From a phage, in the sequence record PV467749.1: 64,000 bases of DNA; one strand, 5' to 3'. The stretch's first letter is position 1, and each line of letters begins with the position of its first letter. Shown piece after piece: positions 1-64,000 of this stretch. The notes under the pieces are model-generated. The model worked only from the letters and a program-made list of their open reading frames with translations, did no database searches and was not told where the DNA came from. The translations under genes were made by a program, and so were the position numbers.

Positions 1-203
1 AACTTTTCTGGATACATTTCGTAATAGAAACGGTTCTTCCAAAATGTTTCACGATTCTTTTTGTTGAATTCAGCTAAATCGAATTTCATCTTACTGTGGA
101 AACGGTCTATACCGTCATGTTCCGCAATGTACTCTAACAGATTATCAATAATCTCAACTTTACCTGAATCATGGTACAACGTAAATGTTTGGTCAAAAAA
201 CAT
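1..203 (-). CDS. hypothetical protein, N-terminal part only (ORF runs off the window start)
   Basis: ATG at 203..201 preceded by AAAGGAG on the minus strand; frame stays open to position 1; N-terminus MFFDQTFTLYHDSGKVEIID. Confidence 0.4.
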   Translation of the reverse strand, partial: MFFDQTFTLYHDSGKVEIIDNLLEYIAEHDGIDRFHSKMKFDLAEFNKKNRETFWKNRFYYEMYPEK

Positions 204-300
204 ATATTTCTCCTTTAAGTTAAACTAACCTAATGGAATGTCATTCTTCCTTTACTACATGTTCTCATGGTTTAATCCTTTTGTCAATATATAGAAAGAA

Positions 301-330
301 AAAATCCCTGCCAAAAGACAGGGATGAAAA
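301..330 (-). terminator. intrinsic terminator-like hairpin
   Basis: inverted repeat TCCCTG/CAGGGA at 305..324; A-run on + strand just before it gives a T-run after the hairpin on the minus strand; ~95 nt downstream of CDS 420..617. Confidence 0.45.
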
Positions 331-419
331 ACTGAAATAACACATGGAGTTCTTTTTAAATTAATAAAAAGTATTATTATTCTTATGAAAGTATTTATCA
401 TGAACTCCAGTTTATTGCT

Positions 420-617
420 TCAAATGCCCCAATAACCTTTTTGTGCTACTATCTCACGGTATTGAGCACGAGTTAGAACACCTTGTTTACGTAGAGCTTG
501 AAGACCTGATAGGGTTTCTGCTTTACGTAGTTCGTAATTGCGTTGTTCTTTAGATTGAATAACTTTAACTTTCTTAACTTTTGCTACTGGTTCTTTTTTC
601 TTAGGTTGCTTTGCCAT
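420..617 (-). CDS. small lysine-rich basic protein (65 aa), function unknown
   Basis: ORF with GGAGAAA RBS upstream of ATG; N-terminus MAKQPKKKEPVAKVKKVKV. Confidence 0.55.
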   Translation of the reverse strand: MAKQPKKKEPVAKVKKVKVIQSKEQRNYELRKAETLSGLQALRKQGVLTRAQYREIVAQKGYWGI

Positions 618-647
618 GAGTATTTCTCCTTTGTTGTTAACAATATT

Positions 648-680
648 ATTATATCATGTATGGGACGAATGTCCCATACA
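648..680 (-). promoter_or_regulatory. sigma70-like promoter candidate (extended -10 TGATATAAT) overlapping a 10-bp-stem hairpin
   Basis: minus-strand TGATATAAT at 656..648 with GGGACA 16 nt upstream; perfect palindrome TGTATGGGAC-GAAT-GTCCCATACA at 657..680 immediately 3' of the phoH stop. Confidence 0.35.
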
Positions 681-683
681 TTA

Positions 684-2123
684 TTACATATTTTCTTCAG
701 CAAATTCTGCCAGTGGTGAACGAACGACACCTTCTAGTTCGATTACACGACAACCGTCCCAGTTCTTGAACTTCTCGGTAACATAAGTTAGACCGCTGTT
801 AACTGGACTAATGAATTTAGAGTCAATCTGGCTCAAGTTGCCCATAATAACCACTTTACAGTTCATTCCTGCACGAGTCAGGATTGTTTTAGCCTGAGCA
901 GGAGTAATGTTCTGGAATTCATCCACTACTAGGATAGTGTTTGTGAAAGAACGCCCACGAACGAAGTTTAGTGCTTTGAACTGGATAACATTACGTTTCA
1001 TGATTTCTTCGATACTGCCTTGTGGGTTAGCATCATCTTTGTGTAGGAATTCCAACGCATCAATGGCAGCTCCACAGAATGGAATCACCTTCTCTGCCTC
1101 AGAACCTGGCAAGAAACCAATGTCTTCGAATTGGGAATCTTGTGTTTTGGAGAAGATGATACGGTCGTATTTTTTCTTCTCTAGTACTAGCTCCAGTGCA
1201 GTAGCAATGGTGATCAATGTTTTACCAGTACCTGCGGAACCCAACAGTACTGTTAGATGAACATCAGGATCTAGAATACTGTTGATTGCTAGTGCTTGCT
1301 GAATATTCTTAGCCTTGATACCCCACACTTTAGCACGTAAAGCGACTGATTGTCCAACGTCTTGGAATACAAGAATATCTTCTGGTGTTAAAGTACCATC
1401 GTCTTCTTCAATTGCCGATTGACCTTCGTACACAAATAGAACATCAGCATTATCATATAGGTAATCACCGATGCAAATATTTTGTGGCATGATATGTTCA
1501 ATCAAGCTTTTTGGAATGTAGTGATACAAACGGCGACCAACTTGTTCAGATTGGATAGACACATCAGTTAGATTGCTATACACATCCCAAAAATCTAGGT
1601 CGAGGTGATGTTGACCAATGTGAATCAAATCACTATCACCAATCACGATATCATGACGGTAATCTTGAACTTCTACTCCGTAGCTTAGAGCCTTGATACG
1701 CATATTGATATCACGGGTAACCAGTACTGAATCAGTTGCTAATGCTACTAAAATGATTTTATCATCTGGTACTGTGCTTTTTAGAAGAGTTTGAACTTTC
1801 TCTTCGTTACCAGCAGTACGAATTAGTGCTTCAGCTTCTTCGCTTGTAATAACAAACAATTTGCTTTCAGGACTCATATTAGTATGAACATCAGCAATAT
1901 TAACACCAGTACTACTAATTTCTTCATGTGATGCATCAGAAAGGATTGCTTCAATGTTACGGATTGCAACACGAGCATCACGGGAAACATCCACATTACG
2001 ACTTTTGATTGAATCCAATTCTTCAAGTACTGTGAACGGTAGAATGATAGCTGCTCCATCAAAAGCAATGGTAGCATTTGGATCAGATAGTAGTACGTTT
2101 GTGTCAATTGTATATTTTTTCAT
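684..2123 (-). CDS. phoH: PhoH-like ATPase with N-terminal PIN domain (PhoH2/YlaK-type)
   Basis: 479 aa; N-terminal PIN-like acidic residues (IDTNVL...LEELD); Walker A LLGSAGTGKT; Walker B-like VVDEFQN. Confidence 0.85.
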   Translation of the reverse strand: MKKYTIDTNVLLSDPNATIAFDGAAIILPFTVLEELDSIKSRNVDVSRDARVAIRNIEAILSDASHEEISSTGVNIADVHTNMSPESKLFVITSEEAEALIRTAGNEEKVQTLLKSTVPDDKIILVALATDSVLVTRDINMRIKALSYGVEVQDYRHDIVIGDSDLIHIGQHHLDLDFWDVYSNLTDVSIQSEQVGRRLYHYIPKSLIEHIMPQNICIGDYLYDNADVLFVYEGQSAIEEDDGTLTPEDILVFQDVGQSVALRAKVWGIKAKNIQQALAINSILDPDVHLTVLLGSAGTGKTLITIATALELVLEKKKYDRIIFSKTQDSQFEDIGFLPGSEAEKVIPFCGAAIDALEFLHKDDANPQGSIEEIMKRNVIQFKALNFVRGRSFTNTILVVDEFQNITPAQAKTILTRAGMNCKVVIMGNLSQIDSKFISPVNSGLTYVTEKFKNWDGCRVIELEGVVRSPLAEFAEENM

Positions 2124-2184
2124 AAAACATCCTTGAGTTATGAGTACATCCTTGTACTCGACTAATGGTTAGTGACTCGGAATA

Positions 2185-46414: not shown

Positions 46415-46447
46415 TGTGATATAACCCTTTACAATTAATATAAAGAG

Positions 46448-47702: not shown

Positions 47703-47707
47703 GGCAT

Positions 47708-51378: not shown

Positions 51379-51844
51379 TATCTTCCCCTACAGTATTCTC
51401 TACGTATTCATAATCGAAATAGAAACTATCAGAACCAATACTTTTAAAGTACCACATAATTACAATAACATCTAATTCTTCTTCATTGTACACAGTACTG
51501 TTCTGGAAGTAATATTCTTCACTATCCCACGGACCTTCTAGTACTGAATACGGAATGATTGTGTCATAATCATCGTAATCAGGGCTGTAAATTATAATAT
51601 CTTCATCTCTACAATAACTAATGTACTGATTGTACATATGATATTCACAGTCATCAGTATCACCCGTATCAGTGTGTAGTACTAACGTTTCTGCATGTAT
51701 CTCTGACTCATCATAATCGTCGCGGTCTTTTACAAAAAATTCAGTATCAGATGTTTTATACACACCAGGCACTGAACCTTCTTGTACCATAATCATGTAC
51801 TCATGAATCTTCTTTGCTTCTTTCAATGCACTTTCTAATGACAT
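51356..51844 (-). CDS. array family A member (sub-block 2/4)
   Basis: 162 aa; MSLESALKEAKKI; core EEYYFQNSTV. Confidence 0.65.
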   Translation of the reverse strand: MSLESALKEAKKIHEYMIMVQEGSVPGVYKTSDTEFFVKDRDDYDESEIHAETLVLHTDTGDTDDCEYHMYNQYISYCRDEDIIIYSPDYDDYDTIIPYSVLEGPWDSEEYYFQNSTVYNEEELDVIVIMWYFKSIGSDSFYFDYEYVENTVGEDNVITKCS

Positions 51845-51846
51845 TA

Positions 51847-52287
51847 CTAATCCCCTGTACTTAAATATTCACATGCTCCCCAGTCAAGGAAGAAGGGTTC
51901 AAAATTCAATTCCTTAAAGTACCACAAAACAACCAAGGAATCAAGCATTTCTTGGTTAAAAATAAGACTCTGTTGGAAGTAATACTCTTCAGTACCCCAC
52001 GGTCCATCAAGTACCCCGAAGTCAACAGGTGTATTTGATGTGTCAAAAGTAATCTTAGTACCTGGAATATATACAAAAAAACTAGTATATTGACTACATG
52101 AAGAGTACTGTATAGTATTGTCTTTATCATGGCCCATAAGTAAAATATCATCAGAGTATGTCTTTATACCTGATAGATAATACTCATTACCAAATGCACT
52201 TACTTTATCACCATAGAAACCACTTTTTATGTTATCGTGGAAGTGATGTATTTTGTGTGCCAGTTTAAGTGCACTTGCTAAACTCAT
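51847..52287 (-). CDS. array family A member (sub-block 3/4)
   Basis: 146 aa; MSLASALKLAHKI; core EEYYFQQSLI. Confidence 0.65.
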   Translation of the reverse strand: MSLASALKLAHKIHHFHDNIKSGFYGDKVSAFGNEYYLSGIKTYSDDILLMGHDKDNTIQYSSCSQYTSFFVYIPGTKITFDTSNTPVDFGVLDGPWGTEEYYFQQSLIFNQEMLDSLVVLWYFKELNFEPFFLDWGACEYLSTGD

Positions 52288-52754
52288 ATATCCTCTTTAA
52301 TAACTCGTAGTAGATCCAAGTCCAGATAGAAGCTAGGACAATCGGTATTATTAAAGTACCACAGAATGACAAGCTTGTCAAGCACATATTCCTCGTAGAT
52401 AGTATTCTGCTGGAAGTAGAACTCTTCACTTCCCCAGTCATTATCCAGTACTGAATACGGAAGATGTTTCTCTGCTGCACCAGTTTTAATGTCAGTATCT
52501 TGTATTAAAATATCAGCATCACGACAGAAGTACATGTAATTATCTTCCAGATTAACAACACACCCATTGAGTGTTGTTTCAGAAGAATCTAAGTTTTCTT
52601 CATACATGTGAATGTACTCACTACTGTCATCGTATATCATTCGACAATAAGCTTTACCTTCCTTGAATAGATACCCATTGAGACGATTGAGTACTATTTC
52701 CTTTTTACATAAATCAATTAACTTAGCAATTTCTAATGCTCTTGCAAAACTCAT
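52284..52754 (-). CDS. array family A member (sub-block 4/4)
   Basis: 156 aa; MSFARALEIAKLI; core EEFYFQQNTI. Confidence 0.65.
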   Translation of the reverse strand: MSFARALEIAKLIDLCKKEIVLNRLNGYLFKEGKAYCRMIYDDSSEYIHMYEENLDSSETTLNGCVVNLEDNYMYFCRDADILIQDTDIKTGAAEKHLPYSVLDNDWGSEEFYFQQNTIYEEYVLDKLVILWYFNNTDCPSFYLDLDLLRVIKEDI

Positions 52755-52755
52755 A

Positions 52756-52941
52756 TCAACTCCTGTGTTGTGTCTTGATATAATCTCGGTAAACCATGTG
52801 AATATTAGCTATATACAATTCACTAATATCATATGTACCGAAGTACATGTCATTCCTAATGCTGTTGTTATGTCTAATATCAATTACGAATCGTCGAAGT
52901 ATTGTATTCATGAATGATTCCATTTGTTCTTTTTTATTCAT
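52756..52941 (-). CDS. small hypothetical protein (61 aa)
   Basis: short ORF filling a gap between array members; weak family-B-like FGTYDISELY. Confidence 0.4.
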   Translation of the reverse strand: MNKKEQMESFMNTILRRFVIDIRHNNSIRNDMYFGTYDISELYIANIHMVYRDYIKTQHRS

Positions 52942-53282
52942 AGCTTAAAACGATACCTATCTTTGGAATCAGTCTCTATACAGATTCTTCTATATTCTTT
53001 CATCTTCTGTTGGAGTTCAATAACTTCCTCTAGTGTACACAAGTACTTCTTGTCAAATATTAATGACTCTTGAAATATTTCAGCCTCACCCTGTACAGTT
53101 GTATAGTCTTTCATATTTTCTACAACTGTTCCTTTGGACTGATAATCAATTAAGCTAAAGTAAGAACCATTAAATTTAATGTACTGATCCATTTTGTGTT
53201 CATAATCACCTTTGTTAAGATTGCAATACACTTCCAGTGAAGTACTAATCTTAGGTATAAACATAGAAAAATCATATGTCAT
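52938..53282 (-). CDS. array family A member (three-gene sub-block)
   Basis: 114 aa; core EAEIFQESLIFDKKYL. Confidence 0.6.
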   Translation of the reverse strand: MTYDFSMFIPKISTSLEVYCNLNKGDYEHKMDQYIKFNGSYFSLIDYQSKGTVVENMKDYTTVQGEAEIFQESLIFDKKYLCTLEEVIELQQKMKEYRRICIETDSKDRYRFKL

Positions 53283-53638
53283 TATGTAATTCCTATATTG
53301 AATTTGTATTCTTGATTAATACTTACATTGGATGTATTCAAAGCAGCATACTCTTTCATTTCATTTTGTATTGTAATAACTTCTTCAAATGTACACAAGT
53401 ACTTCTTATCAAATACTAATGCAGCTTGGAATAGTTCAGCGGCATCCATTACTGTATAATCCGGCATATCTTGATGTGGATACTGTAATGAATCGTAATC
53501 AATAAATGTAAATTTACCCTGAGTGTAATGAATATACTCATTTGCACTGTGCATTAAATCACCTTTGTTTAAATTACAAAAGTACTGAAAACTGTTCTTA
53601 AAAGAATGTACTGATATTACAAAATCAAATTCCATCAC
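53282..53638 (-). CDS. array family A member (three-gene sub-block)
   Basis: 118 aa; core AAELFQAALVFDKKYL. Confidence 0.6.
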   Translation of the reverse strand: MMEFDFVISVHSFKNSFQYFCNLNKGDLMHSANEYIHYTQGKFTFIDYDSLQYPHQDMPDYTVMDAAELFQAALVFDKKYLCTFEEVITIQNEMKEYAALNTSNVSINQEYKFNIGIT

Positions 53639-54048
53639 TCTTCCCCTAGATTGAAATGATTACTAAAATTAGTTTCACCAGTTTTACACCATTTATCTAT
53701 ACATTCCCTGTGAATGCATTTAATTCTACGCTGGATTTCAACAATCTCTTCTAATGTACAGATGTACTTCTTGTCAAATACTAATGACTCCTGAAATAGT
53801 GCAGCATCATCCATTAAGGTATAGTCCAGCATATCGGTTGCTTTACAACTAAATCCAGTACCAAGATCCATTAAATAAAATTGTGAATTCCAGAACTTTA
53901 TAACCTTGCCCCTTGTGTAGTTTAAATCACCTTTGTACAAATTACAACACGTAATCAACTCACCCGTGTACATCCATGTCCCTATACAAAATTCATTATA
54001 TTTTATTTCCATAATAATCTCTACTGTAATTAATAAGGTAAACTCCAA
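53635..54048 (-). CDS. array family A member (three-gene sub-block)
   Basis: 137 aa; core DAALFQESLVFDKKYI. Confidence 0.6.
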   Translation of the reverse strand: MEFTLLITVEIIMEIKYNEFCIGTWMYTGELITCCNLYKGDLNYTRGKVIKFWNSQFYLMDLGTGFSCKATDMLDYTLMDDAALFQESLVFDKKYICTLEEIVEIQRRIKCIHRECIDKWCKTGETNFSNHFNLGEE

Positions 54049-54210
54049 TATAAGGAGAACGTTTGCGGGGGCGGGGTATTTTTTGTTTCAGGAAACATGA
54101 ACTGTACTCTGTGAACACATTTTAAAACTTTATATTAAACATATACCTTAACATGTTTTTCAGCGAAAATTTTTTTGACCCCCCCAGCGGCCTGTGAAAA
54201 CGAAACGTCT

Positions 54211-54426
54211 CTATTTATTCAGCCTAGAAATCTTGATTTCTTCAATCCTTTTCATTGCACAAAGCCTTCGACTCGTCTTCTCGTATATATTCAATACTCG
54301 TTGTACTGCATTATCTGCATCTGCAATCTGAACCAAATATGTATCCTTCAAAATCGAATCCATCATGTATTCAAAACCTTTCACACTATAGCAATATACC
54401 ACTTCCGGCTCTTCAAACGTAATCAT
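54211..54426 (-). CDS. small hypothetical protein (71 aa), unrelated to family A
   Basis: ORF in the island that interrupts the array. Confidence 0.45.
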   Translation of the reverse strand: MITFEEPEVVYCYSVKGFEYMMDSILKDTYLVQIADADNAVQRVLNIYEKTSRRLCAMKRIEEIKISRLNK

Positions 54427-54616
54427 AATTCCAATCCCCTATCCCATCTAACCTTCTAAGATATCTTGCGTAAATTATTTCGAAATATCTGTGCAACGAA
54501 ATTACGGATTGCTCATAATCATCATTCCTGTACATTGTGCATGTAAGAAAATCATTTAAACCGTAATCTAAACTGCACTTGAACTTCTCCTTTGCAACAT
54601 CTCTAAAATTATCCAT
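54413..54616 (-). CDS. small hypothetical protein (67 aa), unrelated to family A
   Basis: ORF in the island; ATG 54616..54614. Confidence 0.45.
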   Translation of the reverse strand: MDNFRDVAKEKFKCSLDYGLNDFLTCTMYRNDDYEQSVISLHRYFEIIYARYLRRLDGIGDWNYDYV

Positions 54617-54771
54617 AATATGTCCTCTGCACAGCGTAGGTGTACTGTGAACTCAGCACCGTTAATAGGTAATCTATGTTGTAAGCACGATTTCCTCGTT
54701 GACTAGCACGGCTAGAATAAAGAATATTATCCACATATGTATCGAACTGTTCTTCAAATAACTCTTTCATC
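54609..54771 (-). CDS. candidate unannotated small ORF (~53 aa), approximate coordinates
   Basis: MKELFEEQFDTYVDNILYSS...; start preceded by a tandem 10-mer (AAAGGGTGCT x2 on the minus strand) supplying an AGGG RBS; stop overlaps the next ATG; coordinates +/-2. Confidence 0.3.
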
Positions 54772-54779
54772 AGCACCCT

Positions 54780-55406
54780 TTAGCACCCTTTAACAACTTT
54801 TGAAATGTAATCTTCTAATGCACCAATGTTCTTTGTATTCGTTCGAACTAAAAGATAACTTAAATCCTCGAACTCCTGAACATAATGCTTAACAGCGTAC
54901 ATGCATCGTAATTCAAAATCTGTATGAACCGTTTTGTACTGAAATAACATCTCTTCTGAAGCCTCTAAAAGCTCTGTGGCTTGTTCTGTACTGAACTTAA
55001 AGGGATTCTGTACTCCTGAACTAAAACACTTTTGTTCGTTCGTCTGGACACCCTGTGATAGATATAATCCTGTGCTACCATCTTGTGTTGATATCGAATT
55101 GAAACCATTACTTGCAACCATTAAATCTGAACTCAATACAAATAATAATTTATCTTCCTTATGAATTAATAAATCTGACTTCAGGGATTTTATTCCTGTA
55201 CTGGTTATATCACCTATACTAAGATTGTCACTGAACTTCTCAGCGTTGTTCGCAATGCTCTGGACAAGATTTTTTAATCTCTTAATGGCACTTCTGTCTT
55301 TTTCTAATGTATCTAATAAACTCATTGAACTCATTGTACTTTCCTTACATATTTGTACCGAACAAAACGGAACTTTGAATGCCATTAATCGACACTTCAT
55401 GTACAT
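54780..55406 (-). CDS. array family A member
   Basis: 208 aa; core EEMLFQYKTV. Confidence 0.6.
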   Translation of the reverse strand: MYMKCRLMAFKVPFCSVQICKESTMSSMSLLDTLEKDRSAIKRLKNLVQSIANNAEKFSDNLSIGDITSTGIKSLKSDLLIHKEDKLLFVLSSDLMVASNGFNSISTQDGSTGLYLSQGVQTNEQKCFSSGVQNPFKFSTEQATELLEASEEMLFQYKTVHTDFELRCMYAVKHYVQEFEDLSYLLVRTNTKNIGALEDYISKVVKGC

Positions 55407-55689
55407 ATATATTTTGTCTGAATACCTGAAGCAATTGAACTAAACTCTGTTGCATAATAATATGCATCGCTAAATTATCAAAGGCCGTTTCGTATTGGAA
55501 TCGTGCAGCTTCATCTTCTATGAAATTCGGAACTTGGACTGGATTTTCAAAATTTGTCCTTGTACTGAACTGTACATCATTGTCCTGTACCTTAATACCA
55601 TATGAATTATCATTGTTATCAACTACATCAAATTCAATTAAACTACCATCTTTACTGACGTTTACTATATAAACTGAAAATCTACTCAT
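55345..55689 (-). CDS. array family A member
   Basis: 114 aa; core EAARFQYETA. Confidence 0.55.
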   Translation of the reverse strand: MSRFSVYIVNVSKDGSLIEFDVVDNNDNSYGIKVQDNDVQFSTRTNFENPVQVPNFIEDEAARFQYETAFDNLAMHIIMQQSLVQLLQVFRQNIYVHEVSINGIQSSVLFGTNM

Positions 55690-56324
55690 AATCCTATTTC
55701 CTTTAAATCTTCCAAAAATGTTTCATAATCACTTAAGGAAAAAAAGATATCCGTATCGATGTTCGCATCTAATACATTATACAAATTCTGCATCTGTAAC
55801 ACATCAGGAGCATCAATCAATGATTGCTGGAAATATGCAGCTTCATCTTCTAAAATATCCCTGAATGATCTCTCTCGTACTCTGTGGTGTACTGAATTGA
55901 ATATTGATTTCTCATCCTTAAGCATTGGTAGGTATCGAATGTACATGTGTTCTCTTAGCTCTGGACTGATGGAACCCCTGAACTGTAACACGTATTCGAA
56001 GCACATAACAACATCCTGAAGGTAATTGGCACTGTAATTATTGCTGTAAACAATCTTATGACTTCTGAACTCATCATCATTTCTGAACCAATTGTCACCT
56101 ACTCTGGTGTACTTATGACTAAGCAATCCACCCTCTAACGCTTTGATGATCTTCAAAATGTTGTGTGCAAATGCATATGATGTATTGTACTTGGCCTGAT
56201 ACATGTGTGCCTCAACCTTATCTTGTGTTAAAATATTCACTGAAATGATTATAACACAAAAGCACCACGATGTTAAGCACTCTGTTGTCAAAATCATCTT
56301 GTGATGTAGGATGCAAGGACGCAT
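55686..56324 (-). CDS. array family A member
   Basis: 212 aa track ORF; core EAAYFQQSLI; probable start at internal Met near 56204 (GAGG RBS). Confidence 0.6.
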   Translation of the reverse strand: MRPCILHHKMILTTECLTSWCFCVIIISVNILTQDKVEAHMYQAKYNTSYAFAHNILKIIKALEGGLLSHKYTRVGDNWFRNDDEFRSHKIVYSNNYSANYLQDVVMCFEYVLQFRGSISPELREHMYIRYLPMLKDEKSIFNSVHHRVRERSFRDILEDEAAYFQQSLIDAPDVLQMQNLYNVLDANIDTDIFFSLSDYETFLEDLKEIGL

Positions 56325-56412
56325 TGATGTTAAAATTCACTATATCATTGTGGAATTGGTATGTGAACAAATCAAACTTCGTATGCCTTTGTTTGATATC
56401 ATAGGCGGTCAT
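56218..56412 (-). CDS. small hypothetical protein (64 aa)
   Basis: ATG start; stop overlaps the RBS of the downstream family A gene; becomes non-overlapping if the 55686 gene starts at the internal Met. Confidence 0.4.
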   Translation of the reverse strand: MTAYDIKQRHTKFDLFTYQFHNDIVNFNINASLHPTSQDDFDNRVLNIVVLLCYNHFSEYFNTR

Positions 56413-56413
56413 A

Positions 56414-57022
56414 TTATATATTCAACCCTTTAACAATGGAAATAAATTCTTTGTATACATTTTCAGGTAAAGCTCTACTACCATAAAGAACACTAAATTC
56501 AGGTAACATATCCGAAATCTCTTTCGCTAAATTTATTTCATCCCTGAACATTTGCACAGGCATGATATCCTGTACCAATGATAACTGAAAGAAAAATGAT
56601 TCAATATCTTCATGCACCTCTGAATTTAAATAAATCTCTTCTGGAAACTGGGCTGTACTGTAATAATAAAATACGTCAATTCTTTTTTCATTATTTTGTA
56701 CAAGAGGTAAATTTCTTTCGTCTCTCTTATTAATATTTGTTTTCCATGACTCAATGTTATTCGGAACCCAAAACTCATAAGGTGTCTTCTCTCCTGAAAT
56801 ATTATCCAGCTTCAATCCATAATATTCACTTTCGCCGTACTTTTGCTTCAAAACAATACCTGTACTACTAATGTTTACAATGTACGTATCAACAATCCCT
56901 TCTGTGGTAAAAGGAATATTTAACTCTGAACCTTCAGGGTACTTAGCATTGAATGCATCTAATGCTTTACTTAGCACTGGAATTGCACTTGTACTGTACT
57001 TCATTAATTGGTCTATGTTCAT
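56414..57022 (-). CDS. array family A member
   Basis: 202 aa; core ESFFFQLSLV. Confidence 0.6.
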   Translation of the reverse strand: MNIDQLMKYSTSAIPVLSKALDAFNAKYPEGSELNIPFTTEGIVDTYIVNISSTGIVLKQKYGESEYYGLKLDNISGEKTPYEFWVPNNIESWKTNINKRDERNLPLVQNNEKRIDVFYYYSTAQFPEEIYLNSEVHEDIESFFFQLSLVQDIMPVQMFRDEINLAKEISDMLPEFSVLYGSRALPENVYKEFISIVKGLNI

Positions 57023-57603
57023 TTTAATTCCCCTGTAATCATACTGATATTTGAACGATACATATCGTACACTGTACTTTCTTTCTTGTGCACAATGAAA
57101 TCATAAAGATCAACAAATGCAGGAATAATAATCTTGAATGATTTATTTGGGTACGTCCCAAAATCAACTGTACTCAATTTTGCAACGAGCATAACAACAA
57201 AGATTTCTTCTGGACTATGCAATGTACTGTACTGAAAATATTCCTCAGCACTCATGGCACTTATTGCATTTATATCTTGTGTTTGTAATGTAATATTAAG
57301 ATATTCAAAAATAGAATAAAACTCTGATTTTGTTTGTATTTTGTATTTGTCAATTGGGGTATCTCTCATGAACCATAAACGGTCCTGACCATAAAAAGGA
57401 ATGATTGAATTTGGGGAACCCAAAAAAACTTCTTCTCTATCAATATCCTTTAACTCAATTTGCATACCGGATGAATTGGCAATAATTAATTCATTAAAAA
57501 TGTAATGAACCTTGTGTACAATCTCTTGTACTGAATTGAAATCATCTGGTATTTTAAAATTTTCCATAGGTATCTCCTTAAAAATGATTACACATTGTAC
57601 CAT
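57019..57603 (-). CDS. array family A member
   Basis: 194 aa; core AEEYFQYSTL. Confidence 0.6.
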   Translation of the reverse strand: MVQCVIIFKEIPMENFKIPDDFNSVQEIVHKVHYIFNELIIANSSGMQIELKDIDREEVFLGSPNSIIPFYGQDRLWFMRDTPIDKYKIQTKSEFYSIFEYLNITLQTQDINAISAMSAEEYFQYSTLHSPEEIFVVMLVAKLSTVDFGTYPNKSFKIIIPAFVDLYDFIVHKKESTVYDMYRSNISMITGELK

Positions 57604-57640
57604 GCATTTGTACTCGTGTCAAACAAAAAAAGCCCATATC

Positions 57641-58138
57641 TTACGATACAGGCATGTTTATTTGAATTTCATTGTACAAATCATCAATATATAGACATGA
57701 AAACGATAAACTTTCTTTAACTATATTGTTGTGATAAAGCATTTTAAACACTATATAGAAAAATAAATCAATATCATCATGAACTAAATTCTGCTGGAAC
57801 CACCACTCTTCTGTTAAATCTTGTGCATTAAAATCATCAGGAACTTCAATTGACGACATATCAGCATCTTCTTTGTACTCAAACCACATGTCGTCATTTG
57901 GAAAACGTTCATGCTTCTCTGGGTAACAATTGCTGGGATTAAATGCTAAAATATAAAATACCGTCGCAGAATGTTCTTTATTAAAAAATGAATTATTCCA
58001 CACCTGATACCTTTCACCAACATCAAGCTCTTTTGATACTGATGTTATTGCACATAATGTACGATATATTGTTTCTATTTTGTGAACAAATTTAAAGGCT
58101 GCATCTAAACTAAACTCTAAATCAGACATGCGGTGCAT
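57641..58138 (-). CDS. array family A member
   Basis: 165 aa; core EEWWFQQNLV. Confidence 0.6.
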   Translation of the reverse strand: MHRMSDLEFSLDAAFKFVHKIETIYRTLCAITSVSKELDVGERYQVWNNSFFNKEHSATVFYILAFNPSNCYPEKHERFPNDDMWFEYKEDADMSSIEVPDDFNAQDLTEEWWFQQNLVHDDIDLFFYIVFKMLYHNNIVKESLSFSCLYIDDLYNEIQINMPVS

Positions 58139-58458
58139 AAAATTACCTCAACTAAAATAAGAACGGTATTGAATTCGAGGCAACCTTTGATACCTTGATT
58201 GTACATGTACTTTGCTACTACATATTTCTGTACTAAATTATAATTATTAAATTCCTCAAAATTGTAATTTAGAATGAAATTTGTACTCAAAAATAACTTA
58301 TGCATCTCTAATGCACTCTGATAATATTTGTACAACTCACTGATATCAATACTTTGTAAATCACTTTGTTCATATGTATGATAAGGAATGGCGTCAATAT
58401 CAATATTATTAAACCATTCTCTTAACTTATTAATATCAAATGTATTATTCAGCTTCAT
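58117..58458 (-). CDS. array ORF, divergent family A-like
   Basis: 113 aa; ISELYKYYQSAL. Confidence 0.45.
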   Translation of the reverse strand: MKLNNTFDINKLREWFNNIDIDAIPYHTYEQSDLQSIDISELYKYYQSALEMHKLFLSTNFILNYNFEEFNNYNLVQKYVVAKYMYNQGIKGCLEFNTVLILVEVILCTACLI

Positions 58459-59023
58459 AACTCAATACCTCCATTAAGCACTCATAAACACCATCAATCG
58501 CATAAGCACAAAAACTGAAATTAATTTTGTTATTCTTGTGTAATGGACTATCGTGTACTGTACTCAACATAACACTATAAAACAAAGAACGTTCATGTGT
58601 AAATAATGATTCCTGAAAAAATGCTTCCTCTGATTTAATTTTATTATATTCAATCGATTGATCATTAGAATAAAATGAATCTTGATTTGAATTGTACCAT
58701 GTGTAATCCAAATCATTCTTTGATATAACTGGTGTTGGATTAAACTGTAAAAGACTAATAACACTACGGGCATTTGGGGTATCAGGTGTATTGAATCGTT
58801 TATCAAAATGACTCGTGCACGCAATATGTGAATCAAAATCAGATGGTTTAAACCCCATGAATGCGTTAATGATTCTTGTATATGGTTTTTTATTATGTGC
58901 TGCTTTCTGTACATTATATAAGGCTGCAACAATACAAGCTAACTTTTGTCCCATAAGGATTGCATTAGCGTAGGTGTACTGAATTTCATTGTACTCATTG
59001 CTTTCATTGTACTTCGAGATCAT
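58445..59023 (-). CDS. array family A member
   Basis: 192 aa; core EEAFFQESLF. Confidence 0.6.
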   Translation of the reverse strand: MISKYNESNEYNEIQYTYANAILMGQKLACIVAALYNVQKAAHNKKPYTRIINAFMGFKPSDFDSHIACTSHFDKRFNTPDTPNARSVISLLQFNPTPVISKNDLDYTWYNSNQDSFYSNDQSIEYNKIKSEEAFFQESLFTHERSLFYSVMLSTVHDSPLHKNNKINFSFCAYAIDGVYECLMEVLSYEAE

Positions 59024-59345
59024 GGAACAGCCTCACTTTGCCTAACTCGTCATTGGATATAAATTCGTTAACAGCTTTCTGTATATTCCTTAATAATAGC
59101 ACATCAAATCCTTTTGTGTCAAGCACACATTGCATTTGGAAGAATTCTTCTTCTGATAATGTATTAAAATCCACAAAATTGTCTAATATTACGTCATTAT
59201 CCAAATGTGCCATGTGCCATGTATTTCTTTCGGAGCGTTTAATAAAATTCCATCCATCTGGATAATCGGGTTCTAATTCTACATATATCCCCGATACTGT
59301 ATAAAGCATTTTATATATCATAACTATTGTACTCATTGCTTTCAC
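59004..59345 (-). CDS. array family A member (near-duplicate pair)
   Basis: 113 aa; DFNTLSEEEFFQMQCVLD. Confidence 0.65.
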   Translation of the reverse strand: MKAMSTIVMIYKMLYTVSGIYVELEPDYPDGWNFIKRSERNTWHMAHLDNDVILDNFVDFNTLSEEEFFQMQCVLDTKGFDVLLLRNIQKAVNEFISNDELGKVRLFHDLEVQ

Positions 59346-59653
59346 TGTACGTCGATGTCATAATACGCTCCTACCTCATAATCTTTCTTGCTTTGGAATT
59401 CATTAACGACTTTCTGTATATTTCTTAATGTTACCATGTCATGTCCGTACATGTCAACCACCAATTGCATTTGGAAAAATTCTTCTTCAGATAATGTATT
59501 AAAATCTATAAAATAATCCGTAACAACATGTTCGTCTAAATTTGCCATGTACCATTGATTGGTATCGACCTCTTTAACCAAATTCCATGCATCTGGATCG
59601 GATTCTAATTCTACATATATTAATGTTAATGTATACAGCATTTTATACTTCAT
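59342..59653 (-). CDS. array family A member (near-duplicate pair)
   Basis: 103 aa; DFNTLSEEEFFQMQLVVD. Confidence 0.65.
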   Translation of the reverse strand: MKYKMLYTLTLIYVELESDPDAWNLVKEVDTNQWYMANLDEHVVTDYFIDFNTLSEEEFFQMQLVVDMYGHDMVTLRNIQKVVNEFQSKKDYEVGAYYDIDVQ

Positions 59654-60203
59654 AACTATATCCTTGCATTAAAAGAACATAAGCAATATCAACTAATTCT
59701 AAACGAATGAAAAATTTTAAATTATCTTTCAATAGATTCAAATGCATTATACTAAACAACATAAGATACTTCATTTGATTTGTATTGTATATTAGGGATG
59801 TCTGAAATACTTCTGCTTCATTGTAAGGATCAATAAATTTTATACCTTCTTCACTGTAATCCGTTTTGGAATTCTGATATATAAAATAATCATCACCAGC
59901 ATTGTACCACAAATAACCTTCAAAACTAGAATCAAATTCTGAATTTTCATTTCGCATTAAAGGTGATACTGAAATTGGATTTGAACCAACTGTTGCACAA
60001 ACCTCAATGTAAGCATCTTCACTTCCCTTAACTTCCTCTTTGATTTTATCATTGTACTGTCCTGCAAAACCAGCTTTTACTTCCAAATATAAACTACTCC
60101 CAACTTTATTAATTCTTAAAAGGGAACTCTGTACTGTATTCGCATTGTTCAGCACTAACGATATTGTGCAAATCTTATGTACCAATAACTCAATATCATT
60201 CAT
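59643..60203 (-). CDS. array family A member
   Basis: 186 aa; core EAEVFQTSLI. Confidence 0.6.
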   Translation of the reverse strand: MNDIELLVHKICTISLVLNNANTVQSSLLRINKVGSSLYLEVKAGFAGQYNDKIKEEVKGSEDAYIEVCATVGSNPISVSPLMRNENSEFDSSFEGYLWYNAGDDYFIYQNSKTDYSEEGIKFIDPYNEAEVFQTSLIYNTNQMKYLMLFSIMHLNLLKDNLKFFIRLELVDIAYVLLMQGYSYEV

Positions 60204-60214
60204 ATTGGTATTCC

Positions 60215-60397
60215 TTAATTTGGTGGATTTGGATGTAATAAACGATCTTGATAATTTAAATGCTCTTGTAATATTGCACTAAGATAATAACTAAAATCAT
60301 TAATTCCACCCTTTAAATGTATATTGTAATACATCTTAATGCTTGTAATCAATGAATTATTTAAATCATCAAATGTTCTTGCTTCATATGATTTCAT
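60215..60397 (-). CDS. small hypothetical protein (60 aa)
   Basis: short ORF between array members. Confidence 0.35.
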   Translation of the reverse strand: MKSYEARTFDDLNNSLITSIKMYYNIHLKGGINDFSYYLSAILQEHLNYQDRLLHPNPPN

Positions 60398-60536
60398 TAA
60401 AATTCTTCCCTCAAATAACGCTTAATGGCACAATCTAAATAAAAATCATAATACATCATATCTCTATTCTTAACCCATACACAATAATCTGCATTAATAT
60501 TTCTTAATAATATATTCATATTATAATCTTCACACC

Positions 60537-60947
60537 CTAATCGTGCCATTTAATAGGATACTCCGTTCCATTTATTGTATAAGATATAATCCATCCGTAA
60601 TGAATAGGATGATTTTTGTCTGAAACAGGAATAAAATATAAAGATGTACTAGGATTATAACTGAATAAATCGTTGTTACCAATTGTAAAATGTGATAACT
60701 CAATCTTCCTTGTACCTGTACTTGGACGAAGAACATTCTTAACACCGAAGACTGTACCTTGATATTTCTCGGAAAATTCAAACAATGCATCTGCAATTAA
60801 ATCACGAAACTCCGCATGTATGGTTTCAAAAAAATCTATATTACACGATGTTTTAATATCCTTGAACTCCTTATATAAAGAGCTTCTTGTATTCAAAAGA
60901 AATATTACTTTTTTAAGATCCTGAACTATTTCTGGATTCATATTCAT
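60537..60947 (-). CDS. hypothetical protein, not family A
   Basis: 136 aa; no FQ core. Confidence 0.5.
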   Translation of the reverse strand: MNMNPEIVQDLKKVIFLLNTRSSLYKEFKDIKTSCNIDFFETIHAEFRDLIADALFEFSEKYQGTVFGVKNVLRPSTGTRKIELSHFTIGNNDLFSYNPSTSLYFIPVSDKNHPIHYGWIISYTINGTEYPIKWHD

Positions 60948-61188
60948 TTATCTCATTCTGTAACTTAAGCATCAAAATTTGCATATTAATTTTTTGTACA
61001 AGATGATTGAGAAATTTCTGTACTGTATCTTCTTGTTCTTTTGTACCAAGATAAAATAACATATTAAATTCAGATAATCTCAGAGCGAAATCTTCCTCTC
61101 CCCCTAGTAAACAAAAATCCCTGTACTTTGAAGCATACAAATAAGCATCTATCTTTTTATAATTCACTGTACTTCCTTTCATATGCAT
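60913..61188 (-). CDS. family B small protein
   Basis: 91 aa; LFYLGTKEQEDTVQKFLNHL. Confidence 0.5.
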   Translation of the reverse strand: MHMKGSTVNYKKIDAYLYASKYRDFCLLGGEEDFALRLSEFNMLFYLGTKEQEDTVQKFLNHLVQKINMQILMLKLQNEINEYESRNSSGS

Positions 61189-61199
61189 TAGGTATCTCC

Positions 61200-61511
61200 T
61201 TATATATTGACATGTTTTGTTATCCCTGCTGTACCTTGTATTAAATTATCATACATATCGAGCATCACTTTTTGAATACTAATTAATACTGGCATCGTGC
61301 AAATATCAATGTCGTATATTAAGCTGTACTGGAATAATTCCTCTTCCTGCATTTGTACTAAATTAGGTAAAAGATAATTGTCTGCCTCTTCATCCTGGTA
61401 CTTGAAATGCATAACACCATCCTTTTTGTACAAAAGAATGTCAATATCACCTAACTCTTCTGCATAACCAAAAATACATATACTCGATGTTTTTGCTATA
61501 TTAAATTTCAT
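61200..61511 (-). CDS. array family A member
   Basis: 103 aa; core EEELFQYSLI. Confidence 0.6.
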   Translation of the reverse strand: MKFNIAKTSSICIFGYAEELGDIDILLYKKDGVMHFKYQDEEADNYLLPNLVQMQEEELFQYSLIYDIDICTMPVLISIQKVMLDMYDNLIQGTAGITKHVNI

Positions 61512-61520
61512 ATTCTTCTC

Positions 61521-61871
61521 TTATATGTAGAATTCACATACGCGTTGAACAAAATTCTTTGGAAGATGACAATGTGCAATCATCTGCTTTTGTACTTCCT
61601 TCATGTCTTCGAATGTAAATCCTAAAGAATCATCATGTACTAACAAGTACTGAAACTCTTCTTCTTCAGAGATAGAACATAAATTCGGTACTGAAATTGT
61701 TTTTGCTTTTCTTGCACCCAATTTCCAATGAAAAGAATTATTGCATTTTCTGTACTCAAATATCTTCAACCCAGAACCTGTATTAAAATCAGCTACTACA
61801 ATGTAACATGAATTCTTACGTACAATACAATTGAACTTACGCATTATCTCCACCTCTCTCCGTCTGTACAA
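61521..61871 (-). CDS. array family A member
   Basis: 116 aa track ORF; core EEEEFQYLLV; probable start at Met10 (61844) behind a GGAGAGAGGTGGAG RBS. Confidence 0.6.
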   Translation of the reverse strand: MYRRREVEIMRKFNCIVRKNSCYIVVADFNTGSGLKIFEYRKCNNSFHWKLGARKAKTISVPNLCSISEEEEFQYLLVHDDSLGFTFEDMKEVQKQMIAHCHLPKNFVQRVCEFYI

Positions 61872-62089
61872 GAGTACTGGTACGTTGTCGTTAGGGTAGG
61901 GACCATGTTTGTAATGGGCATATTATTAACAATAACGGTAACAGGCATAAGAATCGTCTCTTCTCTACTCTGTCCTGTCCTTGTGCAATTCATCTTTTGC
62001 ATTTCATCGGACTCCATGAAATACAATACAAATGGTGCAATCCCAAGAACAATACACAAGACGATAAGGAAATTTAAAAAATTCAACAT
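61844..62089 (-). CDS. small membrane protein (81 aa) embedded in the array
   Basis: ATG 62089..62087 with GGGG RBS; hydrophobic LNFLNFLIVLCIVLGIAPFVLYF; stop TAA overlaps the downstream ATG (TAATG). Confidence 0.45.
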   Translation of the reverse strand: MLNFLNFLIVLCIVLGIAPFVLYFMESDEMQKMNCTRTGQSREETILMPVTVIVNNMPITNMVPTLTTTYQYSCTDGERWR

Positions 62090-62153
62090 AATTTTTACCC
62101 CATGATTAACGTACAGGTACTATATCAGTAATGAAAAGTACTGTCAAGTACTG

Positions 62154-62369
62154 TCATTTGCATTTGGACTTTATTTGACACATCAACCCCCAAATTAAAT
62201 ATCGAACACTATCAGCTTGATAGTTTGTTCCTACTGTGTGTTTTAAGATTAACTCATCTTTCAGTACTGAACATTCTGCATTAGATATAGGAAGAGAATT
62301 AATTCTTTTAATTTCTGGTTGTAAAGTCCTGATAAGATTGGTGTAATCTTTGTATGATAATCTTTTCAT
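62154..62369 (-). CDS. family B small protein (divergent)
   Basis: 71 aa; HTVGTNYQADSVRYLIWGL. Confidence 0.45.
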   Translation of the reverse strand: MKRLSYKDYTNLIRTLQPEIKRINSLPISNAECSVLKDELILKHTVGTNYQADSVRYLIWGLMCQIKSKCK

Positions 62370-62372
62370 TGT

Positions 62373-62714
62373 TCAGTACTCAACGATGTGTTCTTCATAA
62401 CCATTAAACTCCGGTTTAGTTTCTTTCATTAGGACTACCATTTTATGTACTAATGGCATAGGAAATTCTAAATCCCATACTAATGATTCTTGAAAGTATT
62501 CTTCTTCAGATAAAGTACTTAAATCTTTAATATCAACGTGCTTGTATATTTTATTTTCGTAATTAAGAAATGATATATATAAATCATTAACATAAGAATC
62601 ATAAGTAATTGTGAATGGCTTACCCTTGTAGTCCATTACATCTTTACATAGACTGCATTTGATATATGTATGTTCTTCTGAACTGTATACATTGAGTTGT
62701 ATATTAGTTTTCAT
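62373..62714 (-). CDS. array family A member (near-duplicate pair)
   Basis: 113 aa; MKTNIQLNVY...DLSTLSEEEYFQESLVWDLEFPMPLVHKMVVL. Confidence 0.65.
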   Translation of the reverse strand: MKTNIQLNVYSSEEHTYIKCSLCKDVMDYKGKPFTITYDSYVNDLYISFLNYENKIYKHVDIKDLSTLSEEEYFQESLVWDLEFPMPLVHKMVVLMKETKPEFNGYEEHIVEY

Positions 62715-62728
62715 AGTTACCTTATATA

Positions 62729-63067
62729 TTAATACTCAATAATGTGATCTTCATAACCATTAGGTACAGGCTTAGTTTCTTTTATTAGTACTATCATCTT
62801 ATGTACTAATGGCATAGGAAACTCCAAATCCCATACTAATGATTCTTGAAAGTATTCCTCTTCAGATAAAGTACTTAAATCTTCAATGTCAATGTGTTCG
62901 TACATGTTATATTTGTAATCAGCAAAAGATATATAAAAACCTCTTGTATTATCATAAGTAAGTGCAAATGGCTTACCTTTGTAGTCCATTACAGAGTTAC
63001 ATGTATGGCATTTGATGTATGTACTTGCAAATGATTTATATACCTTGAGTTTTATATTAGTTTTCAT
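62729..63067 (-). CDS. array family A member (near-duplicate pair)
   Basis: 112 aa; MKTNIKLKVY...DLSTLSEEEYFQESLVWDLEFPMPLVHKMIVL. Confidence 0.65.
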   Translation of the reverse strand: MKTNIKLKVYKSFASTYIKCHTCNSVMDYKGKPFALTYDNTRGFYISFADYKYNMYEHIDIEDLSTLSEEEYFQESLVWDLEFPMPLVHKMIVLIKETKPVPNGYEDHIIEY

Positions 63068-63341
63068 ATTTCTCTTTATTAGCTTGTTTAGATTGTTTGG
63101 TTTTATAGTGAATGAAATCTATTAATGTAATCAAGTACAACGTCAAATAGTACTCTTGTTGATCTGTACCTAATGATACAAAGAACTTGTGCTCATAGAT
63201 TAAAACCTGTTTCTCTTCAAATGGACATTTAATCCTCTGTATAGGCTTAAGTAAATGATAGTACTTATTAAATCTATGATACATTTCTAGTTCTGTCAGT
63301 ACTTTCATATTAAACATGTACTCCATTAGCTGTAGCATCAC
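63057..63341 (-). CDS. family B small protein
   Basis: 94 aa; FFVSLGTDQQEYYLTLYLITL. Confidence 0.45.
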   Translation of the reverse strand: MMLQLMEYMFNMKVLTELEMYHRFNKYYHLLKPIQRIKCPFEEKQVLIYEHKFFVSLGTDQQEYYLTLYLITLIDFIHYKTKQSKQANKEKYEN

Positions 63342-63531
63342 GTAAAGCTCTCAAATACTTCTGTACTGCTTGCTCTTGATGATCTGTACCTAAAAGTATA
63401 TACATCCATAATTCACTGTAATGTACATCTTGTGTATAAGGGTTGTTGTAACTTTTTGATAATATAGCATCAAATTCAGATGCATGAACCCTTGCGAACT
63501 TAAGCATATCTTGTTGTGTTATGATTCTCAT
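63310..63531 (-). CDS. family B small protein
   Basis: 73 aa; MYILLGTDHQEQAVQKYLRAL. Confidence 0.5.
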   Translation of the reverse strand: MRIITQQDMLKFARVHASEFDAILSKSYNNPYTQDVHYSELWMYILLGTDHQEQAVQKYLRALRDATANGVHV

Positions 63532-63743
63532 ATCTTTTCCTGTACTATCTGCATAAGAATCTCTATGTGTGAATTAACAGTTCTCTCTTGATGCTGTGTT
63601 CCTAAGAGTGTCAGTACTATCATCTCTGAACGCAAAAGATTTTTTTCAAGTTCACTTATATCAGTTCTTGAATCAAGTGCCATATATTTGTGATTATTCT
63701 TCCTGAATAGTGCCAAGTACTCTTGATTTGATATTTCCTTCAT
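63528..63743 (-). CDS. family B small protein
   Basis: 71 aa; LTLLGTQHQERTVNSHIEIL. Confidence 0.5.
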   Translation of the reverse strand: MKEISNQEYLALFRKNNHKYMALDSRTDISELEKNLLRSEMIVLTLLGTQHQERTVNSHIEILMQIVQEKI

Positions 63744-63970
63744 AGTTTATTCCTGATGCCATTTAAAAGTGCTCTAATATGCTCCTGTACGAATTTGTAC
63801 TGACTGTCTGTTCCTAGAGTGAGTAGTAATCTTAAATCTGAACTTTTGATATGATATTCTAAATCATTATTTGATTCTTGCATCAGTTTCTTAAAGGATG
63901 AGAAGTTTGCAGCCATTAGTTCAATGTATTCTGCTGTTCCTAGTGGTTTGTGTATTGGCTGTTTGTGCAT
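63740..63970 (-). CDS. family B small protein
   Basis: 76 aa; LLLTLGTDSQYKFVQEHIRAL. Confidence 0.5.
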   Translation of the reverse strand: MHKQPIHKPLGTAEYIELMAANFSSFKKLMQESNNDLEYHIKSSDLRLLLTLGTDSQYKFVQEHIRALLNGIRNKL

Positions 63971-64000
63971 TTTAATTTTATTACCCTTTTGAGTGTATTA

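Follow-up and report, generated by a model that had tools for sequence, protein, structure and literature searches.

A selected excess of the palindrome AGTACT in the genomes of a clade of enterobacterial jumbo phages

The palindromic hexamer AGTACT is strongly over-represented in a stretch of 64,000 nucleotides of Asteriusvirus jumbo coliphage DNA (accession # PV467749.1; "the window" refers to this whole stretch). The enrichment is real, acts at the level of the DNA, is under selection, and is ancient in the clade of phages that share it. The interpretation that we favor, though only tentatively, is that AGTACT, preferably in the form CAGTACTG, is the recognition site of a clade-specific reader, which marks the phage DNA and acts as a promoter operator.

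Over-representation of AGTACT in the window and the genome

The window has 99% identity to Escherichia phages WPEC5, Ecwhy_1, and fEgEco12, and 81-86% identity to phages 121Q and PBECO4. These are Asteriusvirus jumbo myophages with genomes of ~350-385 kb. The window maps to ~290.8-354.8 kb of the WPEC5 genome, directly left of the right copy of the direct terminal repeat (DTR), which is 21,662 bp long in this phage. All of the real genes of the window are on the minus strand.

An exact count gave 187 AGTACT in the window, or 2.9 per kb. The G+C content is 33.4%, in agreement with the one-third that had been estimated by eye; base composition predicts 21.5 occurrences, and order-1 and order-2 Markov models predict 17.5 and 38.5, respectively. 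The excess over base composition is 8.7-fold and falls inside the five- to tenfold range given in the original prediction, whose hand tallies (11 sites in positions 1-4700, 7 in 10000-12000, and 7 in 22000-23600) were exact. At the flanks, C at position -1 and G at position +1 are favored, a preference that is itself palindromic, and CAGTACTG is present in 35 copies in the window compared to 0.59 expected. The pentamer AGTAC is the most enriched 5-mer of the genome (3.9x). Variants of AGTACT that differ by one nucleotide at an outer position are above expectation, those that differ at an inner position are at expectation, and GTAC is enriched 2.3-2.9x. A companion motif is strand-asymmetric: the plus strand of the window contains 123 TGTACT vs 33 of the complement AGTACA.

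The whole WPEC5 genome contains 1,122 AGTACT, where 128 are expected. Their density is 2-3 per kb throughout, the structural genes on the plus strand included, and 6-7 per kb in the DTRs. Within genes and outside of the DTR, the spacing of the sites fits a Poisson distribution, and their density is uniform across all gene classes and both strands. Pairs of sites at distances of up to 120 bp number 238, compared to a Poisson expectation of 243.5; over this short range, neither clustering nor helical periodicity of the intragenic sites was found.

An artefact of codon usage, dipeptides, or a peptide motif would be in keeping with AGT, ACT, and GTA being common codons and with a tRNA-Ser(GCU) being encoded by the phage, but it was rejected by two types of shuffling, and we give it practically no credence. 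Shuffling synonymous codons within genes, which holds the protein sequences and each gene's (already biased) codon usage fixed, yields an expectation of 46 ± 5.8 AGTACT in genes, compared to 175 observed (z = 22); shuffling the order of codons yields 24 ± 4.7 (z = 32). The excess thus survives the codon-shuffled and Markov nulls that had been proposed as a check, and the count lies outside the range expected from composition. As had been noticed from the sequence, the sites occupy all three reading frames of the window genes (68, 43, and 63 in frames 0, 1, and 2, respectively) as well as non-coding DNA, in which the 13 sites in 4.5 kb amount to a density equal to that of genes.

The motif also distorts coding sequence. 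In WPEC5, 412 of the 785 Ser-Thr dipeptides are written AGT-ACT, compared to 120 expected from codon usage. This 3.4-fold difference indicates that the codon bias itself is mostly a consequence of the motif. Ser-Thr dipeptides (785) outnumber Thr-Ser (524), and Val-Leu (779) outnumber Leu-Val (569); the pressure for AGTACT is so strong that protein sequences are affected. AGT makes up 33% of the Ser codons, largely through the AGT-ACT form of the motif, and a phage gene for tRNA-Ser(GCU), which reads AGY codons, is located on the minus strand of WPEC5 (87460-87549; L002:37460-37549). This tRNA may help to meet the codon demand that arises from the signature in the DNA.

Phages typically purge short palindromes. 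Among the 6-bp palindromes, only AGTACT is at more than twice the count expected from the order-1 model; of the remaining 63, 30-34 reach less than half of the expected count. Palindromes with at least four G/C occur 16 times compared to 113 expected, and 27 of the 32 different palindromes of this type are absent from the window. With AGTACT as the one exception, the genome itself does avoid palindromes, as the original prediction had assumed for phages in general, and the AGTACT enrichment reverses the textbook rule. Among other short palindromes in the window and WPEC5, GATC (0.48x), CTAG (0.47x), and CCGG, CGCG, and GGCC (0.25-0.41x) are depleted, and TGCA is mildly up (1.7x). GGTACC and CGTACG are absent despite GTAC being at 2.9x.

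Conservation and turnover of the sites

The window was compared to phage 121Q, with 83% identity over 58.9 kb, using 179 composition-matched hexamers as controls. AGTACT is intact in 121Q at 125 of the 166 alignable sites (75%), compared to 39.7% for the control hexamers (p = 1e-20). Identity per position is 0.89-0.96 within AGTACT, and 0.77-0.88 in its flanks. Purifying selection acts on the sites, and they also turn over while their density stays constant: 41 AGTACT are present only in the window and 45 only in 121Q. Similarly, 14 kb of orthologous genes of WPEC5 and RaK2 (~70% identity) contain 33 and 30 AGTACT, respectively, with only 10 positions shared. It is mainly the density, rather than the individual positions, that is kept. 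Xu et al. used the same conservation argument to infer selection on the cyanobacterial palindrome HIP1 (PMC5861425). Selection at the level of the DNA, for which the original prediction had argued, is borne out by this conservation together with the codon-aware nulls, the three frames, the non-coding copies, and the AGT-ACT excess.

The sites might nevertheless be a functionless by-product of biased repair or mutation, through which AGTACT is continually created and restored, as in the Elhai model for HIP1. The uniform, Poisson-like density across gene classes and strands, the turnover at constant density, and the lack of sites in mobile or recent DNA all speak for such a process. However, the Vsr repair bias in E. 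coli has effects of less than ~2-fold, compared to the 9-16-fold excess seen here. Furthermore, AGTACT is conserved nearly twice as well as the composition-matched controls (compare Xu et al., PMC5861425), the promoter positions described below are exact and kept across genera, and the AGTACT-free zones have sharp edges within otherwise similar DNA. The conservation test and the fixed promoter positions disfavor a purely mutational signature, which the original prediction had listed among its explanations, and we consider a neutral origin quite improbable.

Distribution among phages and in the host

AGTACT is also in excess in 121Q (11x), RaK2 (7x), GAP32 (15x), CBB (16x), Yersinia phage fHe-Yen9-04 (6.5x), and Salmonella phage Munch (6.3x). 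The trait is common to Asteriusvirus, Alcyoneusvirus, Mimasvirus, Eneladusvirus, and phage Munch. The Pseudomonas relative PA5oct is without the excess (3 AGTACT vs 16.6 expected), and the unrelated coliphage PD06 has 0 vs 12 expected. E. coli K-12 has 4 AGTACT in 100 kb (0.04 per kb), compared to 23 expected; with about one site per 340 bases in the phage, the motif is ~70 times denser in the phage than in the host.

A second signature is the absence of GCGC, which occurs 0 times in the window (48 expected) and 0 times in WPEC5 (356 expected). GCGC is also at 0 in 121Q, RaK2, GAP32, CBB, fHe-Yen9-04, and Munch, that is, in all AGTACT-rich relatives sampled; it is at a normal level in PA5oct and PD06, and at 7.5 per kb in E. 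coli. Among the sampled phages, the absence of GCGC and the enrichment of AGTACT co-occur exactly, and the pair provides a simple marker for the clade in metagenomes. The absence suggests that the phages are immune to a nuclease specific for GCGC, which they might encode themselves. The library of literature that we searched held no paper linking AGTACT or GCGC to these phages.

The Chi site of the host, GCTGGTGG, is ~19-fold enriched in WPEC5 (48 vs 2.5 expected). The window contains 5 Chi sites compared to 0.3 expected (7152, 9487, 14056, and 21679 on the minus strand, and 31273 on the plus strand). Chi peaks at the ends of the WPEC5 genome and in the DTRs, in both orientations: the first 40-kb bin, which includes the 21.7-kb left repeat, has 8 on the plus strand and 9 on the minus strand. 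Such an arrangement would be needed to protect both ends of the genome from RecBCD. CCACCAGC is among the top 8-mers in 121Q, GAP32, and CBB, and the overlapping ACCACCAG is among those in RaK2.

Early promoters

The intergenic DNA of the DTRs contains 10.7 AGTACT per kb. In the terminal repeats of WPEC5, CBB, and GAP32, AGTACT is built into sigma70-like promoters with the same geometry in all three phages. AGTACT starts at fixed offsets of -7 and -28/-29 from the -10 hexamer, and in this subset of promoters it thus has the placement of a promoter element. The distance between the two AGTACT is 22 bp; one directly precedes the -35 hexamer (TTGACA), and 1 nt separates the other from the -10 hexamer (TATAAT) downstream of it. 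An example from CBB reads AAA[AGTACT]TTGACAAAATGGTTAG[AGTACT]TTATAAT. The canonical extended -10 element (TGn) was rejected as the cause of AGTACTG before TATAAT, given TG at -14/-13 and the AGTACT-T-TATAAT found in CBB. About 12% of all AGTACT look promoter-associated, half of those in DTRs, whereas ~88% are inside genes and far from promoters.

The tandem AAGTACTGTC AAGTACTGTC that had been pointed out near the right end of the window is present (Table 1). It overlaps a predicted promoter (TTGACA, 17 nt, TATAGT), recognized by its match to the consensus only.

A second class of early promoters is without AGTACT. In these, the -35 TTGAC lies within a G+C-rich inverted repeat, e.g., GGGATTGACTCCGGTCAGTCCC followed by TTTGCTATTAT. 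Examples from the WPEC5 DTR are L001:1254-1499, 3535-3754, and 10831-11231 (minus strand), and in CBB (L012) this class is found at ~6495, 8419, 15175, 18807, and 19663. The class is conserved between Asteriusvirus and CBB.

The AGTACT-free block

Positions 53,641-61,640 contain 0 AGTACT compared to 26.7 expected at the local density (P = 2.5e-12). In their place, the block has hemi-sites, all in one orientation: the plus strand contains ~44 TGTACT and 0 AGTACA, a total bias (44:0). On the coding (minus) strand, the counts are 43-45 for AGTACA, 73-74 for GTACA, 47-51 for AGTAC, and 0-1 for GTACT. The hemi-sites are found in all frames (16/14/10). At a resolution of 1 kb, the block has sharp edges in WPEC5. 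Across the edge, AGTACW on the coding strand stays at ~5-6 per kb, and the last base alone switches. Outside 34-64 kb, the orientations of the hemi-sites are balanced.

The same pattern is present in 121Q, where the block has 81% identity. In the comparison to 121Q, AGTACT-to-TGTACT is the commonest change outside the block, and none occurs inside it. All PHROG matches of the proteins encoded in the block are to families of unknown function, and these proteins are restricted to Asteriusvirus. A recent import of the block from another phage lineage is unsupported, as the pattern is also found in 121Q and the proteins are found in Asteriusvirus only. The block suggests that the pentamer AGTAC is readable in a strand-specific manner, the palindrome being its compact presentation on two strands.

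We considered the possibility that a tracking enzyme reads AGTAC on one strand, or that AGTAC is read on single-stranded DNA, with AGTACT as the most compact two-strand form. Such a signal might attenuate a phage or host helicase-nuclease in the manner of Chi, serve as a primase start, or be the target of a site-specific nickase for clamp loading or recombination entry. A strand-read signal best fits the block, in which 47-51 AGTAC vs 0-1 GTACT are held in three frames across ~18% divergence with turnover, and it is in line with the constant AGTACW density over the block edge and with AGTAC being the top 5-mer. In addition, the ~19-fold enrichment of Chi, with both orientations in the terminal repeats, shows that the clade already uses orientation-dependent "self" signals. 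However, fixed positions beside the -35 and -10 hexamers are unexpected for a signal of a tracking enzyme, the symmetric C...G flanks suggest recognition of the entire palindrome, and hemi-site orientations are balanced outside 34-64 kb. The priming and Chi-like variants do not account for the strict ban on the other orientation within the block, and we know of no primase or Chi system that uses AGTAC. Overall, we regard strand-specific reading of the pentamer as an unlikely explanation of the enrichment.

Methyltransferases and other candidate readers

The phage encodes two DNA methyltransferases, a C5 enzyme and a Dam-family enzyme. The latter corresponds to the Dam-like gene of the original prediction (30006-30530), and its assignment to the Dam family (PF05869) agrees with that description. 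Homologues with at least 60% identity are found solely in RaK2-like phages, and the next best has 48%. This confinement to the clade is compatible with a link to AGTACT, but is not evidence for one; co-occurrence in the clade is the only link between AGTACT and this enzyme as its proposed modifier. The C5-methyltransferase (PF00145) was rejected as a reader: bisulfite data for RaK2 show that it yields 5-methylcytosine at CpG (PMC3622015), and a 50%-identical homologue is present in PD06, a phage with 0 AGTACT.

Digestion of fEgEco12 DNA with 10 restriction enzymes, EcoRI and HindIII among them but none that targets AGTACT or GTAC, gave the predicted cleavage (PMC13070987). This excludes blanket modification and non-specific adenine methylation in fEgEco12; in the absence of blanket modification, a mark based on sequence is plausible.

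An epigenetic explanation follows the model of HIP1: AGTACT, or its GTAC core, would be the target of the Dam-family enzyme acting as an orphan methyltransferase, and the methylation state would be read. Sites would be fully methylated in virion DNA and hemimethylated after replication; this state could serve to switch early promoters once the DNA has been replicated for the first time, to discriminate strands during repair, or to license packaging. Methylation-sensitive promoters (IS10 pIN, dnaA P2) classically have sites that abut the -10 and -35 hexamers, and the spacing of the two AGTACT by 22 bp, on the same helix face, is reminiscent of what SeqA requires. The PF05869 subfamily is limited to exactly the AGTACT-rich clade, and the excess of outer-position variants and of GTAC, with inner variants at expectation, is as in cyanobacteria, where each hyper-abundant palindrome co-occurs with a methyltransferase for its inner core and one-nucleotide variants occur at the outer positions (PMC4390886). 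However, nothing shows that the Dam-family enzyme recognizes AGTACT, and non-specific activity is excluded by the EcoRI and HindIII cleavage of fEgEco12 DNA. PD06 has a small gene annotated as "DNA methyltransferase" beside its C5-methyltransferase homologue, yet zero AGTACT, and a methyltransferase specific for the palindrome leaves the oriented hemi-sites of the block unexplained. The PF05869 enzymes known to us are either GATC-specific or non-specific. We judge the epigenetic explanation to be doubtful, with a low probability.

Binding sites for SlmA, the nucleoid-occlusion factor of the host, would allow the phage DNA to block host cell division, an explanation that we hold to be highly improbable. 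Its 12-bp site GTGAGTACTCAC has the identical AGTACT core (PMC3020112), and the hosts of the AGTACT-rich clade are all Enterobacterales, while the host of PA5oct is Pseudomonas. The SlmA site GTRAGYRCTYAC is a 12-bp palindrome in which G1, T2, A4, and G5 are required, together with a purine at position 3 (PMC3020112). However, at the six flanking positions, the agreement of the phage sites with the SlmA site does not exceed that expected from base composition. Position -1 is mostly occupied by C, which is a pyrimidine, and G...C is the rarest of the flank pairs (7 of 984). The flank analysis led us to reject SlmA.

Two further candidates were rejected. The termini and repeat boundaries of WPEC5 and CBB are not at AGTACT, which speaks against a terminase cut site and against the packaging signal that had been proposed. 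The PF11645 homing-type PD-(D/E)XK endonuclease, the sole nuclease of this fold in the Pfam scan described below, was discarded as a reader, being a sporadic multi-copy homing-type gene that is not conserved in the clade.

The PF11645 gene and an adjacent treble-clef zinc-finger protein (DUF4379) are located at 48117-51880 in WPEC5, a region with almost no sites that is among the largest AGTACT-poor stretches. Members of this nuclease family are found at 13 places in WPEC5 and occur sporadically among unrelated phages.

A proposed recognition site for a clade-specific reader

We infer that a protein reads AGTACT and that the site serves both marking and promoter control. The reader would be sequence-specific and encoded by the clade, in its simplest form a dimeric DNA-binding protein; the palindromic C...G flank preference fits a symmetric dimer. 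The site is maintained at about 1 per 340 bp along the whole ~360-kb genome, and bound sites would mark phage DNA as "self" in the cell. With only ~0.04 sites per kb in the host, occupancy of AGTACT would flag phage DNA as self. The same site in the early promoters of the DTRs would allow occupancy to switch these promoters, most likely off. The near absence of AGTACT from the mobile homing-type nuclease region, recent DNA without the motif, counts in favor of a reader. A binding target for a phage factor, one of the options in the original prediction, remains the best reading of the data, although no factor was identified.

Several observations weigh against a reader of this type. A symmetric dimer on double-stranded DNA leaves the one-way hemi-site block unexplained; with all hemi-sites one way and the opposite orientation forbidden, the block points to strand-specific reading. 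As a rule, the sites of transcription factors show no enrichment within genes, and only ~12% of the AGTACT sites are associated with promoters. A strong repair bias that restores sites could, in principle, be an alternative source of the conservation. A Pfam scan of 148 unnamed WPEC5 open reading frames (ORFs) yielded no helix-turn-helix, ribbon-helix-helix, TetR-type, or ScaI-family match. The conserved ORF beside the Dam-family methyltransferase (30547-31143) has only 10 homologues, all in the clade, and it was set aside as a candidate reader or nuclease; its AlphaFold model is poor, with a predicted local distance difference test (pLDDT) score of 60, consists of beta-hairpin repeats, and has no PDB match with E < 1e-3.

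A broader and more speculative proposal, to which we assign a rather low probability, is that enterobacterial jumbo phages of the RaK2/121Q type, which are without a nucleus or blanket modification, tell their own DNA by sequence alone, and that AGTACT as a positive tag, the absence of GCGC as a negative tag, and borrowed Chi sites evolved together. The AGTACT tag (~3 per kb in the phage vs 0.04 per kb in E. coli) would be read by a phage factor. The absence of GCGC (0 vs ~356) would confer immunity to a GCGC nuclease, probably the phage's own destroyer of host DNA. Chi in two orientations in the terminal repeats would disarm RecBCD, and the hemi-site block would be a region where the reader must act on a single strand. 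Taken with the loss of GCGC and the gain of Chi, the AGTACT enrichment suggests that genome composition may be how very large phages that have neither a nucleus nor modified bases tell self from non-self.

Other features of the window

The features of the window are listed in Table 1. The GTAC-poor island may be recently acquired DNA without the signature of the clade. The region 34000-61900 contains ~60 small genes on the minus strand (110-210 aa) that belong to paralogous families of unknown function. This run of genes is greatly expanded in Asteriusvirus; GAP32 and CBB have only ~11 kb between the Dam-family methyltransferase and the terminal repeat. The second AGTACT-free zone, beyond the right end of the window, is located beside the right terminal repeat in WPEC5 (354070-359664; L008:4070-9664) and is also found in 121Q (L009:30000-34000). 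It is a tandem array of ~25 small ORFs (~70-80 aa) with 15 GTAC in 5.6 kb, and its few hemi-sites are oriented opposite to those of the block.

Table 1. Positions of AGTACT-related features and candidate genes in the window.
Feature	Position	Strand	Description
AGTACT palindrome, often as CAGTACTG	1..64000		n = 187, ~2.9/kb outside two gaps (53641..61640, 23601..25820); based on counts, nulls, and conservation in 121Q
GTAC-poor island	23601..25820		0 AGTACT and 5 GTAC in 2.2 kb; ORFs 23939-24667 and 24693-25625 without Pfam match
Dam-family N6-adenine DNA methyltransferase, PF05869	30006..30530	-	Pfam E = 4e-33; sole methyltransferase in the window; candidate modifier of the motif
Paralogue-rich gene array	34001..53640	-	76 AGTACT; plus strand TGTACT 41, AGTACA 13 (same oriented hemi-site excess)
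AGTACT-free block	53641..61640	-	0 AGTACT, ~44 hemi-sites in one orientation; ~15 fast-evolving genes, function unassigned
High-density island	61641..64000		14 AGTACT in 2.4 kb; flanked by the block and by a second AGTACT-free zone beyond the right end of the window
Tandem AAGTACTGTC x2 (minus strand: GACAGTACTT GACAGTACTT)	62136..62155	-	Read from the sequence; overlaps a sigma70-like promoter

Comparison with known systems

The avoidance of restriction sites is seen in this genome for other palindromes, whereas AGTACT shows the opposite, a 9-fold enrichment. A restriction-modification target protected by methylation would be at or below its expected frequency, and AGTACT does not conform to this. 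As AGTACT is a ScaI-type site, its enrichment is the reverse of what restriction pressure would produce. ScaI-type restriction or engineered AGTACT nucleases should hit these phages, which are candidates for therapy, exceptionally well, unless the site is protected.

Chi (RecBCD), the DNA uptake sequences and uptake signal sequences (DUS/USS), and the FtsK-orienting polar sequences (KOPS) are similar to AGTACT in being short, dense, selected motifs that tolerate positional turnover, and through them a protein machine discriminates own from foreign DNA. However, these motifs are asymmetric and orientation-dependent genome-wide, whereas AGTACT is palindromic except in the 8-kb block. AGTACT in the early promoters, with two identical palindromes 22 bp apart on one helix face, resembles operator pairs and methylation-sensitive sites that flank the -35 and -10 hexamers (IS10 pIN GATC, dnaA P2, two-site repressors). 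They differ from AGTACT in that ~88% of its copies are inside genes and remote from promoters.

The closest known phenomenon is HIP1 (GCGATCGC) of cyanobacteria. HIP1 and the alternate cyanobacterial palindromes are likewise in many-fold genome-wide excess, in all frames and in intergenic DNA, and AGTACT shares with them this excess, the presence in all frames and non-coding DNA, and conservation above controls. The enrichment described here would be the equivalent of HIP1 in phages, with two features added: to our knowledge, fixed positions in early promoters and an oriented hemi-site block have no counterpart in HIP1. In HIP1, too, the sites exceed the background in conservation, an argument for selection (PMC5861425), and one-nucleotide variants are concentrated at the outer positions; the cyanobacterial palindromes co-occur with a lineage of orphan methyltransferases (PMC4390886). 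The two differ in that HIP-type palindromes belong to a cellular phylum and are 15-300x in excess, whereas AGTACT is an AT-rich hexamer of a virus clade with an excess of 6-16x. HIP1 is associated with a methyltransferase for the cognate core, compared to a candidate methyltransferase for AGTACT. HIP1 shows periodicity at 10-90 kb, whereas the intragenic AGTACT sites are without clustering or periodicity at distances of up to 120 bp, the sole range examined. The function of HIP1 has been unsolved for ~30 years, and a clade of culturable coliphages offers a fast experimental system.

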